DNA from: a virus
Taxonomy: Duplodnaviria; Heunggongvirae; Uroviricota; Caudoviricetes
DNA: 38,349 bases
Reading direction: 5' to 3' (one strand)
Virus record (IMG/VR): IMGVR_UViG_2681813146_000009
Location: 1-38,349 of that record
Every line of letters starts with the position of its first letter. Positions within the stretch are counted from its first letter, which is position 1. Below the pieces are notes generated by a model that was given only the letters and a program-made list of their open reading frames with translations, searched no databases and was not told where the DNA came from. Positions 3,983 to 16,425 of this stretch are shown piece by piece. The translations under genes were made by a program, and so were the position numbers.

Positions 3983-4174
3983 TTAAAGACCTGCCGGGAT
4001 TTCGTTATTATCCTGGTGAATAACTTTATCGACCGGGTAACAGTTACCGGGAATTTTCTGTTCGGTTGCTGCAGTCACACACTCCTGCATTGTCCTGTGA
4101 ACACTGACTGCAATATCAACTGGCTCTCCGGAAACAAGAAAAACTGTCAGAACAAGTGCAAATGCTGTATTCAT
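3983..4174 (-). CDS. ydfD: YdfD-like small protein with N-terminal signal/TM segment (Qin-type dicB operon distal gene)
   Basis: 63-aa ORF MNTAFALVLTVFLVSG...; AAGGA RBS; ATGA overlap with dicB stop; matches recalled K-12 YdfD. Confidence 0.7.
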   Translation of the reverse strand: MNTAFALVLTVFLVSGEPVDIAVSVHRTMQECVTAATEQKIPGNCYPVDKVIHQDNNEIPAGL

Positions 4175-4359
4175 TGTGCACATCCTTTTTGTATCGGACG
4201 TAAACGGGCCAGCATTGAAAGAATGCATATTTTATTTAATAACTCCCGTTCGTGTTTTCTCTTGTTAATGGCATCTTCAGTAAATACAGGGTTACTGATA
4301 GTGACACCAATTTCAAAACAACCTTCAGACGTATTAACGTTTGGTAATAACGTTTTCAT
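4171..4359 (-). CDS. dicB: Cell division inhibitor DicB
   Basis: 62-aa ORF MKTLLPNVNTSEGCFEIGVTISNPVFTEDAINKRK... matching recalled DicB; GAGGG RBS; immediately downstream of dicF. Confidence 0.85.
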   Translation of the reverse strand: MKTLLPNVNTSEGCFEIGVTISNPVFTEDAINKRKHERELLNKICILSMLARLRPIQKGCAQ

Positions 4360-4528: not shown

Positions 4529-4586
4529 AAAAAGGGCGGCAGAGCAGTCACGGAGTAAAACTGATACCGCCAAACGTCACCAGAAA
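4529..4586 (-). ncRNA. dicF: DicF small RNA (ftsZ-targeting sRNA), ends approximate
   Basis: Minus-strand sequence TTTCTGGTGACGTTTGGCGGTATCAGTTTTACTCCGTGACTGCTCTGCCGCCCTTTTT matches recalled DicF; ends in GC-rich stem plus T-run; lies between ydfC-like and dicB as in Qin. Confidence 0.85.
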
Positions 4587-4921
4587 ATTGATAACAGAGG
4601 GCGTTGCAGCGGGGTTGTCACTTAAGCGTATGGTCAACCTGACAACCCGGTGTCCTCAACGGGGGAAGGAATAACCCCGCCATACTTACCGCCGCGCCAT
4701 TTCGCGGATTGCCACAACCGGAAGCGCACGGTCGACGAAAATTTAACGACAGGCTATCTATGAACCAGCTACCTCGCCGAGCGCTTTCGCGTTATGGTCT
4801 GACTTTTCAGGGAAATATCCTTTCAGTAAACTGTCAGTGCCGGATGCTCACCCGTGTCCGGCGCACGCACTCCACCTCACCCGTGGAGAACTCCTTAATC
4901 ACCAACCCTCAGGAGGGTGAA

Positions 4922-5197
4922 ATGTCGACTGAAAATGATGAAATCATTAACTCCCTGATACGCCAGATTAATAATTTTGATAAAGCATTGCAGCATGCTG
5001 CGGCGCGTAGTGATATAACTCTTTTAGCAATTTCATTTCTTGCATCTGTTATGGATAAAAATGAAGTCGTACGACAGAGTCTTGTTGATTATATCGACTC
5101 GCTTCAACCCGGCACTTTCAATCATGAGAGCTTCAATCATGAGAAAGAGCATGTTAAGTCTGTAATTAATTCTCTTATTTTGAATCAAAAGAATTAA
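4922..5197 (+). CDS. Hypothetical protein, 91 aa, AT-rich, antisense to the dicB operon
   Basis: Strong AGGAGGG RBS 6 nt upstream of ATG 4922; contains FNHESFNHE tandem repeat; the in-frame upstream extension from TTG 4709 judged non-coding. Confidence 0.5.
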   Translation: MSTENDEIINSLIRQINNFDKALQHAAARSDITLLAISFLASVMDKNEVVRQSLVDYIDSLQPGTFNHESFNHEKEHVKSVINSLILNQKN

Positions 5198-5495
5198 TGC
5201 TTTTTGTTGCAAAGTAATTTTCAAGGGGTTCTATTCGAATCCCTTTCGTTTTCATTAACAAGCCAAACCCCTTATCAATGATGTCCATTAGATCCAGGAA
5301 GTATTTTTCATGTAAATCCTGGTTATCAGAGAGCAGCTTCTCTTCGTACAGACCGATAAAGGCACGACGCACGTTACCGGATATAGTATCGATGGTTTCT
5401 TTTTCTACGGTACTCAGGTCAAGAGTCGCCAGTTGGGAACGAACTATATTCGCTGCCATTTCCTGGAATGGCATTGGTAAATCTTTAAATTCCAT
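5175..5495 (-). CDS. Hypothetical protein, 106 aa, AT-rich
   Basis: ORF 2 nt downstream of ydfC-like stop; GAGG RBS; 3' end overlaps the convergent 4922..5197 gene by 23 nt. Confidence 0.55.
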   Translation of the reverse strand: MEFKDLPMPFQEMAANIVRSQLATLDLSTVEKETIDTISGNVRRAFIGLYEEKLLSDNQDLHEKYFLDLMDIIDKGFGLLMKTKGIRIEPLENYFATKSINSFDSK

Positions 5496-5497
5496 TA

Positions 5498-5737
5498 TTA
5501 GCCTCGTTGGTTAGCTATTAACGTGGGTATGTAACCATTCTGGCAATGCTTAATGCCGCTGCTTTTTTCCAGCCTGGTGATATCCTGCTCCAGAGCGGAC
5601 AGATTTTCAGCCTGCTTAGCTCTGGCTTCATTAGCCCATTTCAGATCCTGCGCTGCATTAATTTTCTGGCGCATCCACTCATAAAGTTCATCATCGGTAT
5701 AGTCTGGCGCGATGATGACGGGTTCTCGTTTCTGCAT
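5498..5737 (-). CDS. ydfC: YdfC-like small protein
   Basis: 79-aa ORF in dicB-operon position; identity by recall of Qin ydfC, unverified. Confidence 0.6.
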   Translation of the reverse strand: MQKREPVIIAPDYTDDELYEWMRQKINAAQDLKWANEARAKQAENLSALEQDITRLEKSSGIKHCQNGYIPTLIANQRG

Positions 5738-5896: not shown

Positions 5897-6052
5897 TCAC
5901 TCACCTGAGTTTCTTTCCAGCCAGCGACGGGCACCATTTTCGGTTTTAAACGTTTTGCTTTTTGTATACGTCATTGCGGTGAAGGTGCCGTCCTGGTTTG
6001 GAAACACGCCGTACACCAGAGATTCGTTGTTGCCAAGCTCGATAGTATCCAT
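5897..6052 (-). CDS. ydfA: YdfA-like small protein (51 aa), first gene of leftward operon
   Basis: Internal ATG of ORF 5897..6133 with GAGG 6 nt upstream; 51 aa matches K-12 YdfA length. Confidence 0.55.
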   Translation of the reverse strand: MDTIELGNNESLVYGVFPNQDGTFTAMTYTKSKTFKTENGARRWLERNSGE

Positions 6053-6231
6053 GCTGACCTCATTTCCCCTTAACGCCGGGGTAGCGGAACAAAAACCTGC
6101 TGCATAGTTATTAAAGTTGAACCCTGCCGTCATGTTCTTACGCCTCGGGCTGGCTACTTAACCCCTGACCACTGCCTGGTAACTCGAAGTATTGCCCTGC
6201 ATTCTGTAGGATGGGGTGAGGGAATGAATGA

Positions 6232-6344: not shown

Positions 6345-6983
6345 TTAAATATCTTGTTGAATTTTAAAGCATACGCCCAATATGCAAGATAGATCATCCA
6401 GCATAATTGAAGGGTAGCGAGGATTCGTGGGGACTAAAAGAATATCCGGCCCTTCTATCTCCAGTTTACGAATGACAGGTGTTGTGGTCCCTTTGGGTAA
6501 GGCAAGGACAATATTTCCTGGTTGTACGGTTCGATCGGGATCAACAAAAACTGTTGAACCATTTGGGATGGAAACTCCCCCACCAGATGTTGACATACTG
6601 TCACTCTCTAGAACAACTGCAAAGGTATTGACCGGGATTTCTCCGACAAGCTGCACACAAGAGGTTATTGAGGAATTTTTCATATAATCACTCCAGCTTG
6701 CTGCCTGCTGAAGTGATAGTAGCGGAACCGTTTTTATCGGCGGTAAAGATAGATCAAGCGAATCACCTGTATTTAACTCTCCTCCATTAAGAAGCCAATT
6801 TTCGTTTACTTTCAATATTTTTGCCAGTGAACTTATGTAACGCGAGGACGGCGCTCCTCCACCGTTCATCCATTGACTTACGGAGCCTTTTGATGCGCCA
6901 GTGCCATTGACAAGGTCTTTGCCTTTCAGGTTTAGCGCATGCATACGTTGGGTTATGCGTTCAGATATAGTTTGCTTGCTCAT
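6345..6983 (-). CDS. cI: CI-type repressor (N-terminal HTH, C-terminal S24 LexA-like autopeptidase domain)
   Basis: 212-aa ORF; XRE-type HTH region; S24-like Ser (DSMSTSGG) and Lys (VIRKL) motifs; divergent from cro. Confidence 0.9.
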   Translation of the reverse strand: MSKQTISERITQRMHALNLKGKDLVNGTGASKGSVSQWMNGGGAPSSRYISSLAKILKVNENWLLNGGELNTGDSLDLSLPPIKTVPLLSLQQAASWSDYMKNSSITSCVQLVGEIPVNTFAVVLESDSMSTSGGGVSIPNGSTVFVDPDRTVQPGNIVLALPKGTTTPVIRKLEIEGPDILLVPTNPRYPSIMLDDLSCILGVCFKIQQDI

Positions 6984-12025: not shown

Positions 12026-12227
12026 ATACAGCGAACGCCATTGGTTTAGTTGGATATTTACTGTGCCGGACAAAAACGGTTTGCGGGGAAATCTTAGTTA
12101 AGTAGAATGACTGCGGGTGCTTGAGGCTATCTGTCTCAGGCATGAACACCAAAAGGCAGATAGAGAAAAGCCCCAGTTAACATTACGCGTCCTGCAAGAC
12201 GCTTAACATTAATCTGAGGCCATATCT

Positions 12228-12287
12228 ATGCGACACATAGAGATTAGCCTCTTACGGACCGAAAGGTCAAGGAGAAGCAGGCTATGA
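12228..12287 (+). CDS. Short leader ORF overlapping hok start (mok-like coupling element, tentative)
   Basis: 19-codon ORF with TGAGG upstream; stop overlaps hok ATG as ATGA. Confidence 0.3.
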   Translation: MRHIEISLLRTERSRRSRL

Positions 12288-15281: not shown

Positions 15282-15357
15282 GGCCCTTTAGCTCAGTGGT
15301 GAGAGCGAGCGACTCATAATCGCCAGGTCGCTGGTTCAAATCCAGCAAGGGCCACCA
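15282..15357 (+). tRNA. ileZ: tRNA-Ile2 (anticodon CAT, lysidine type; ileZ-like) with encoded CCA
   Basis: Manual cloverleaf: acceptor GGCCCTT/AAGGGCC, anticodon loop CTCATAA, T-loop GGTTCAAATCC; close to recalled E. coli tRNA-Ile2. Confidence 0.8.
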
Positions 15358-15457: not shown

Positions 15458-15531
15458 GCGTTGTTAGCTCAGCCGGACAGAGCAATTGCCTTCTAAGCAA
15501 TCGGTCACTGGTTCGAATCCAGTACAGCGCG
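15458..15531 (+). tRNA. tRNA-Arg (anticodon TCT; argN/argO-like)
   Basis: Manual cloverleaf: acceptor GCGTTGT/ACAGCGC, anticodon loop CTTCTAA, T-loop GGTTCGAATCC. Confidence 0.75.
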
Positions 15532-16165: not shown

Positions 16166-16390
16166 CCGGGTATCAGTTAGCGGGAGAAATTTTTAAATAC
16201 TTCACAATTCAGGCGGTTGACTGTTGTCTGGTTTGCGGGGAGTTTGTTAAAAGAAACTGGCATGGTGAATCCCCCTGTGCGGAGGGGCAATCAGCGAGTA
16301 GGTATATGGGATAATCGCGGATTCAGGTGCTGGTACTGAATTCACCGGGAGGCACCCGGCACCATGCAATGGCACATAGCGCCACTCTCC

Positions 16391-16425
16391 AGCCCCTCTC
16401 CGGAGGGGCTGTTTATATTGATTTT
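16391..16425 (+). terminator. Candidate rho-independent terminator (AGCCCCTC-TCCG-GAGGGGCT plus T-rich tail)
   Basis: 8-bp GC stem with tetraloop followed by GTTTATATTGATTTT. Confidence 0.5.

Follow-up and report, generated by a model that had tools for sequence, protein, structure and literature searches.

In a 38,349-nucleotide (nt) stretch of viral DNA (IMG/VR record IMGVR_UViG_2681813146_000009; hereafter the window), which belongs to an E. coli prophage, a dicB-type early operon (dicB encoding a cell-division inhibitor) on the minus strand (3.9-6.2 kb) is interrupted, between ydfC and the DicF small RNA, by a convergent pair of small genes: a 106-amino-acid (aa) open reading frame (ORF) in operon sense, F106, and a 91-aa ORF on the opposite strand, R91. 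Our comparative analysis establishes R91 as a nested protein gene that lies antisense within an early lytic operon, is overlapped at its 3' end by an operon gene, and is exchangeable with it as a cassette. The substitution patterns indicate that both R91 and F106 are real genes under purifying selection, and the arrangement probably ties expression of the pair to whether the prophage is dormant or active. An earlier note on this DNA had placed the two ORFs, their 23-nt overlap and a strong ribosome-binding site exactly where we find them, and they do lie between ydfC and dicF, as it had stated. The note was also right that R91, located between F106 and DicF, runs antisense to the part of the operon transcript that precedes DicF. 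The features of the region are as follows.

6345-6983: LexA-family repressor gene; the operon, including the F106 and R91 site, lies downstream of it
5897-6133, minus strand: ydfA (DUF1391), by domain match
between ydfA and ydfC, minus strand: ydfB, an operon member
5498-5737, minus strand: ydfC, in the window a 79-aa frameshift allele
4908-5497 (590 nt): accessory cassette, comprising the R91 ribosome-binding site, R91 and the whole of F106
5175-5495, minus strand: F106, 106-aa ORF
5175-5197 (23 nt): overlap of the 3' ends of F106 and R91
4922-5197, plus strand: R91, 91-aa ORF between F106 and DicF
4911-4917, plus strand: R91 Shine-Dalgarno sequence AGGAGGG, 4 nt before the ATG at 4922
4586-4907, minus strand: GC-rich non-coding leader, about 320 nt between the cassette and DicF
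4534-4585, minus strand: DicF small RNA (Rfam RF00039, 76.7 bits)
4171-4359, minus strand: dicB (PF05358)
same minus-strand operon: counterpart of ydfD (a DUF1482 protein) and a YdfE-type exonuclease

A three-way DNA alignment with K-12 and strain 33F4 resolved the cassette as a clean 590-nt indel with exactly two ORFs inside it. Strain 33F4 and E. coli NCTC86 (NZ_CP019778.1, 1550784-1551059) are examples of cassette carriers. Both genes are absent from the ydfC-dicF interval of the K-12 Qin prophage (NC_000913.3), the comparison that the earlier note had proposed, and the flanks of the cassette, including the 320-nt leader before DicF, are approximately 97% identical to Qin. The note had described the pair as inserted into the dicB operon; the clean indel is consistent with this, and also with a deletion in Qin. 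The contrast in base composition that had been pointed out holds: the cassette has a GC content of 38.3% compared to 54.7% for the leader (4586-4907) and 47.5% for the ydfC-ydfA segment, with 51.2% for the whole window. R91 (35.1%) and the 3' part of F106 (33.3%) form the most AT-rich stretch, as expected for an acquired accessory gene.

By contrast, the tight coupling of F106 to ydfC that had been inferred is a property of a minority allele. The window has six T residues on the plus strand at 5563-5568 where K-12 and strain 33F4 have five, and the extra base shifts the ydfC frame by +1, such that translation continues to 79 aa through a new C-terminus and stops 2 nt short of F106. The usual YdfC has 72 residues and its stop codon lies 22 nt upstream of the F106 ATG; the 2-nt spacing is thus due to the extra base. 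The 79-aa allele was present in 7 of about 130 loci examined, and we therefore take it for a variant of the lineage and not for a sequencing error.

Several lines of evidence indicate that R91 encodes a protein. Its frame is the only one of the six without internal stops. Two alleles, beginning MSTEN and MGFDV, have 43 nucleotide differences but only 19 amino acid differences, with a ratio of nonsynonymous to synonymous substitution rates (dN/dS) of 0.30. When 43 substitutions were placed at random in R91, 74.5% of 20,000 sets gave a stop codon and none (0/20,000) was as conservative as the observed set. This pattern clearly points to purifying selection at the protein level. Homologues are few (15 clusters): an exhaustive HMMER search of 1.84 billion cluster representatives returned nine matches, consisting of the R91 family itself and one protein resembling a second reverse-strand product, R92, and a profile search found 45 proteins, none from outside E. 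coli and Salmonella. R92 is a distant homologue of R91 (28% identity, E value 9e-6); identity between R91 and R92-like relatives is 26-36%, and the Salmonella relatives have the same length. In an alignment of 12 full-length members, the invariant residues beyond the start methionine and Leu12 are R29, D31, L34, S38, K46, R51, E74, K75, H77 and S84. An AlphaFold2 model with a predicted local distance difference test score (pLDDT) of 76 shows a small helical bundle (helices 2-43, 49-60 and 68-84), and R91 is accordingly predicted to be an all-helical member of an orphan family. No R91 match was found among deposited phage genomes. Four matches among the complete E. coli genomes were on plasmid records, possibly phage-plasmids.

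Upstream of its ATG, the R91 frame has no stop on the plus strand (4709-4921) and contains further possible starts at 4709 (TTG) and 4761 (ATG); for this reason, some database entries give 117-145-aa versions. We rejected a 145-162-aa extension starting at 4709 or 4761, since it would cross the conserved non-coding leader, which is also found at empty sites; on this comparison, the upstream extension is most likely not translated.

F106 belongs to a larger family. It is a full-length match to PHROG 6937 (E value 9e-67), with 234 homologues, and its N-terminus also matches PHROGs 1363, 2151 and 9419. Across this family the N-terminal 53 residues (MEFKDLP...ISGNVRRAFIGLYEEK) are near-invariant, and the C-terminal part occurs in at least four mutually unrelated types, in proteins of 106/109/124, 122, 133 and 135 aa. 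The dN/dS values are 0.16-0.27 for the N-domain (53 codons) and 0.34-0.84 for the C-part, where the counts are small. The AlphaFold2 model (pLDDT 70) has four helices (8-23, 32-55, 59-83 and 94-101), and F106 is predicted to be acidic, helical and soluble-looking, with no predicted membrane segment. F106 is thus an early gene in operon sense and belongs to a family widespread among phages. In deposited phage genomes, matches to F106 were limited to the N-domain. Among them, Shiga toxin (Stx) phages such as PA2 (locus L092; NC_028449.1, 11677-12120) and other Stx2 phages encode a 147-aa protein with an N-domain that is 46% identical and a different C-part. The Stx-phage gene lacks a reverse gene, and a hairpin pair resembling that of the window comes next.

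The site itself is polymorphic. Among 5,426 complete E. coli genomes, 198 (3.6%) carry R91, 88 (1.6%) carry an unrelated reverse gene, R73, and 2,697 have an empty K-12-type junction; with the pair also missing from K-12 Qin, it does not behave as a standard member of the dicB operon. The earlier note had allowed that both ORFs might turn out to be conserved, annotated components of that operon; this is not the case, and in near-identical genomes F106 (WP_000394534.1) and R91 (WP_000102678.1) are each named only "hypothetical protein" in RefSeq. Four cassette types were identified at the junction.

F106 or F109 with R91: overlap of 23 or 32 nt
F124 with R73: overlap of 11 nt
F133 with R92: overlap of 41 nt
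F135 with R77: overlap of 23 nt

Every reverse gene lies at the same junction and converges on a forward partner, with an overlap of 11-41 nt that is fixed for each cassette type. A reverse gene of any one type is almost always accompanied by a forward partner at a fixed overlap (31, 76 and 58 IMG/VR loci), and no reverse gene without a converging partner was seen in the loci examined. R91, R73, R77 and R92 have in common the start junction GGAGGGTGA(A)ATG directly after the conserved leader, and GGAGGGT(G/A)A(A)ATG also precedes the Salmonella R92-like genes. R73 and R77 are unrelated to R91/R92, and a profile-profile comparison of R73 with R91/R92 likewise revealed no relation; R73, R77 and R92 fall into PHROGs 7249, 10348 and 18692, all of unknown function. 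The variable segment is bounded on both sides by near-invariant DNA. Collectively, these data are best explained if Qin-like lambdoid prophages have, at this site of their early lytic operon (dicB, pL-type), a recombination hotspot occupied by an optional two-gene cassette.

Pairs of this kind also persist in other backbones. An R92-like gene of Salmonella Rac-like prophages faces F71, a gene of 71 aa, with their 3' ends again overlapping by 41 nt; the F71 product corresponds to the C-domain of F133 standing on its own (60% identity, E value 1e-24). The R77-like genes found in other genera (57-62% identity) overlap their convergent partners, F80 (80 aa) or F144 (144 aa), by 23 nt, and in locus L202 the 80-aa gene follows a ydfC-like gene. 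The C-domains of F80 and F144 are homologous to that of F135 (z = 11-28 relative to shuffled sequences, with the overlapping tails removed). Co-variation of forward C-domain and reverse gene is therefore present for two types, but absent for the type found in the window. The recurrence of unrelated convergent, overlapping pairs at one junction, two of which persist elsewhere, makes a functional module more likely than a pair of ORFs that arose by chance. The note had suggested a toxin-antitoxin, exclusion or anti-defence module; an accessory module with recurring convergent pairs fits these data, and an obligate toxin-antitoxin system is disfavored, given that the genes are convergent and the C-domain of the window occurs with R91, with R73 or with neither.

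The leader between the cassette and DicF is conserved beyond the Qin-like prophages. It is kept in K-12 and in Salmonella prophages without dicF (L094 and L095, 3600-4000; L097, 3700-4000), and part of it (4610-4707) recurs in P1 and P7, where it follows closely after Pban, a promoter under C1 control (P1 AF234173, 68420-68514), in a segment that the P1 annotation names "dicF-like region". Downstream of the leader, two of the Salmonella prophages have a C4-type antisense RNA (RF01695, 77 bits; L094 3026-3113, L095 3034-3121). These neighbors raise the possibility that the leader serves antisense RNA genes of phages generally as an upstream element. Rfam searches at gathering and permissive thresholds found no family within 4586-5250. 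The leader has no sequence similarity to the PL or PR regions of HK022, and the idea that it is an HK022 put-type antiterminator was dropped.

The border between leader and cassette contains the elements that could control R91. A perfect palindrome, ACCCTC-AG-GAGGGT (4905-4918), lies at the cassette boundary (4908) and encloses the R91 ribosome-binding site, which is partly sequestered in the predicted RNA fold. Four further elements were identified around R91.

4804-4832, plus strand: candidate sigma-70 promoter of R91 (TTTTCA, 17 nt, TAAACT), weak and found by eye
4839-4862: hairpin A, core stem 4839-4844/4857-4862 (GCCGGA/TCCGGC in E. coli)
4870-4888: hairpin B, stem 4870-4875/4883-4888 (CTCCAC/GTGGAG in E. 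coli)
5223-5245, plus strand: hairpin resembling a terminator and followed by a T-rich tail; it begins 26 nt past the R91 stop, inside the F106 coding sequence

The hairpin region (4837-4888) lies directly upstream of R91 in the R91 sense and has a fold z-score of -3.1. The pairing is retained in most lineages despite differing stem sequences: CCCGAC/GTCGGG in a Salmonella prophage with P2-like immunity genes, GTACG/CGTAC in PA2, and GCCTGA/TCAGGC and CTTGG/CCAAG in other genera. The hairpins are present with and without a reverse gene, including at the empty K-12 site, and are therefore a feature of the operon or site rather than of R91 alone. They may act on either strand, in R91 sense or in operon sense. 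The GGGUGA sequence at the ribosome-binding site of R91 has its complement in the hairpin loops, which carry CUCACCC when read in R91 sense and GGGUGAG when read in operon sense; the corresponding sequences of the Salmonella Rac-like prophage are GGGUAA at the site and UUACCC in the loop.

The candidate promoter would put the transcription start site near 4838-4840, at the foot of hairpin A, and TTTTCA-18-TAAGCT is kept in the Salmonella Rac-like prophage despite a different spacer. We judged the terminator after R91 to be unreliable. The count of such sites was no different from that in shuffled sequence and the stem encodes conserved F106 codons (KGIRIEPL), and the hairpin may therefore be coincidental.

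The model that we tentatively favor, and that we regard as possible rather than probable, is a "noncontiguous operon" life-cycle switch in which R91 would be a lysogen-phase effector and the F106 C-part its lytic-phase neutralizer. The layout is that of a noncontiguous operon: R91 is nested antisense, on the plus strand, in a minus-strand operon downstream of a LexA-family repressor gene. In the lysogen, the operon would be silenced by the repressor, leaving R91 to be expressed from a weak candidate promoter of its own in the leader. Upon induction, strong operon transcription would run head-on through R91, silencing it by polymerase collision and double-stranded RNA, and the same transcript would yield F106. 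The role that we favor for R91 is an exclusion, defense or guard function in the lysogen, and the C-part of F106 would neutralize it such that the prophage would not be harmed by its own gene.

A number of findings weigh against this model. First, Pfam, NCBIfam and PADLOC searches with R91 and F106 found no meaningful match to a defense, toxin or antitoxin family; the best E values for the two proteins in PADLOC v2.0.0 (2023 library) were 0.014 and 0.043. Fold searches with the models were uninformative and gave no fold match, and a sequence-profile search of the PDB found none either, in keeping with the earlier note, which had recognized no motif in either protein. Second, the forward C-domain of the window (type A) is found beside R91, beside the unrelated R73, or by itself, and a lone 124-aa forward gene with no reverse gene was found in 15 of 85 IMG/VR loci. 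R91 and this C-domain are therefore not strict cognates. Third, the forward C-domains that accompany the homologous R91 and R92 (types A and B) have no similarity. Fourth, in a Salmonella prophage with P2-like immunity genes, R92-like genes face an XRE-type helix-turn-helix protein of 171 aa, an otherwise unrelated forward protein in which only the last ~21 residues are common. Fifth, the candidate R91 promoter matches only 8 of 12 consensus positions and, for that reason, is absent from the list produced by a promoter scan. Finally, the assignment of the effector role to R91 and the antidote role to F106 is guesswork.

The wider searches returned little that bears on function. When ten partner proteins were compared to Pfam, NCBIfam and PADLOC, the only hit was a generic helix-turn-helix in the Salmonella 171-aa partner, and PHROGs placed the window and partner proteins only in families of unknown function. 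Our literature search found no paper citing WP_000394534.1 or WP_000102678.1, and the papers that it returned on DicF and ydfC say nothing of genes located between ydfC and dicF.

The same architecture is compatible with the reverse polarity, in which F106 would be a host-harming early protein and R91 a lysogen-made antidote to leaky F106. We consider this reading doubtful, albeit nearly as likely as the model above. The dicB operon is rich in growth inhibitors: dicB and DicF are present in the window, and the neighbors to which F106 would be likened are DicB, DicF, YdfD and Kil. A forward gene without a reverse gene would be tolerable for a toxic F106 if the operon is tightly repressed, forward C-domains co-occur with their own reverse genes across backbones, and the convergent overlap would also reduce F106 mRNA. 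However, F106 has no toxin-like domain and is an acidic, helical, soluble-looking protein, one forward C-domain is found with two unrelated reverse genes or with none, and the layout is unlike that of co-transcribed, autoregulated type II systems.

It is also conceivable, but in our view unlikely, that the two genes are functionally unrelated, with the architecture arising from recombination between anchors (the forward N-domain on one side, the leader and ribosome-binding site on the other) and the overlap from tight packing. The near-invariant DNA that flanks the variable segment fits such a process, which would also account for a type-A C-domain that is joined to R91, to R73 or to nothing and for an R92-like gene that is joined to a helix-turn-helix protein through a tail of only ~21 aa. 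What this explanation does not predict is that F71 with R92-like genes and F80/F144 with R77-like genes stay paired without the N-domain anchor, with their overlaps of 41 and 23 nt unchanged, and that every reverse gene found had a converging partner.

A role at the RNA level is less probable still. Here, the R91 transcript would act as a cis-antisense regulator of DicF/DicB output, through read-through or RNase III processing, and the protein would be secondary; this reading comes close to the transcript interference that the earlier note had expected, and it is compatible with the others. The whole of R91 is antisense to the F106-DicF spacer of the polycistronic RNA, reverse genes always adjoin the conserved structured leader that precedes DicF (or, in Salmonella, the C4 RNA), and lambda OOP RNA, which covers the 3' end of cII, is a precedent. 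Conversely, a pure antisense role needs no four unrelated coding sequences, half of E. coli genomes have a DicF locus without the cassette, and R91 is under purifying selection at the protein level, with R77-like and R92-like proteins conserved across genera at 57-62% and 26-36% identity, respectively. With its protein conserved, an RNA-level role cannot be the whole story for R91.

That one or both ORFs are chance or annotation artefacts in AT-rich DNA, as might be suspected from two "hypothetical proteins" of which one has just 15 clusters and nine matches among 1.84 billion, is scarcely credible: by our own estimate an open frame of 91 codons at 36% GC arises in about 0.1% of cases per frame, R91 has a dN/dS of 0.30, allelic differences more conservative than any of the random sets, a consensus ribosome-binding site, same-length Salmonella relatives and ten invariant residues, and F106 is in a large PHROG family.

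The closest architectural parallel to the noncontiguous-operon model is Tha/Ith of Staphylococcus aureus phage 80alpha, in which a prophage function is made to follow the life cycle through head-on transcription combined with an inhibitor protein; there, the lysogenic cI operon carries the defense gene and the nested gene encodes the inhibitor (Rostol et al. 2024, PMC11087260). As in that system, the window has a small gene nested antisense in a prophage operon beside its proposed partner, a likeness of architecture only. The layout is mirrored, since the operon in the window is early lytic and that of 80alpha is the lysogenic cI operon. Moreover, the window pair, which is known from sequence alone, has no sequence or fold similarity to Tha/Ith and no HEPN domain, and its 3' ends overlap.

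Convergent transcripts that overlap at their 3' ends are found in lambda OOP/cII and in type I toxin-antitoxin pairs such as txpA/RatA. The window resembles these in having convergent genes in a prophage operon with a 3' overlap of tens of nucleotides; if the transcripts overlap likewise, double-stranded RNA and RNase III cleavage would be expected. Its antisense partner, however, is a conserved protein gene and not a small non-coding RNA. Nor is F106, an acidic, helical protein of 106 aa, the short hydrophobic peptide of a type I system, and R91 is protein-coding. With type II toxin-antitoxin systems, the pair has in common two small adjacent genes on a mobile element that occur as swappable pairs. 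The genes of the window, however, are convergent rather than co-transcribed and have no known toxin or antitoxin domain, and the forward gene is also found without a reverse gene or with unrelated ones.

Pore-forming colicin operons have an immunity gene on the opposite strand in an inducible operon. As in colicins and polymorphic toxin-immunity systems, the N-terminal part of the forward family is conserved, the C-terminal part varies, and a small gene that varies too comes next (encoded on the opposite strand in colicins). Proteins of the window type are nevertheless far too small (70-147 aa), have no delivery, receptor-binding or toxin domains, and show only partial co-variation. Finally, the window and the canonical Qin dicB operon (ydfA-ydfB-ydfC-dicF-dicB-ydfD) share the flanking gene order, DicF and the leader sequence, and differ in that K-12 and about half of the complete E. 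coli genomes lack F106 and R91. By these comparisons, the pair resembles a known noncontiguous operon in architecture, matches no defense model of the 2023 PADLOC library and is not among the canonical dicB components.

A broader version of the favored model is that the ydfC-leader junction is a hotspot for a new class of miniature modules, each composed of a nested antisense lysogen effector, a lytic C-domain antidote and a two-hairpin anchor, with at least three unrelated effector families (R91/R92, R73 and R77) that would provide phage exclusion or defense with self-immunity. We regard this generalization as speculative and unlikely. If the life-cycle switch is correct, the cassettes would add several families of very small proteins (70-135 aa), new as prophage effectors and antidotes, and a Gram-negative, mirrored counterpart of the Tha/Ith life-cycle coupling; if it is wrong, F106 and R91 would be two further phage ORFs of unknown function at a mosaic junction. 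Even so, the recurrence of unrelated pairs at one junction beside a conserved structured element goes beyond an ordinary pair of hypothetical ORFs. The cassette lies directly upstream of DicF and DicB, both of which act on cell division, metabolism and phage receptor function, and strains with and without it may therefore differ in the amounts of DicF and DicB. The two-hairpin leader, common to Salmonella prophages and in part to the P1 ban leader, is an uncharacterized RNA or DNA element in its own right.

Elsewhere in the window, Rfam searches at the gathering threshold identified the following.

12115-12286: sok antitoxin RNA (106.7 bits)
15282-15354 and 15458-15531: two tRNA genes
16231-16420: STnc100 small RNA (132.4 bits)

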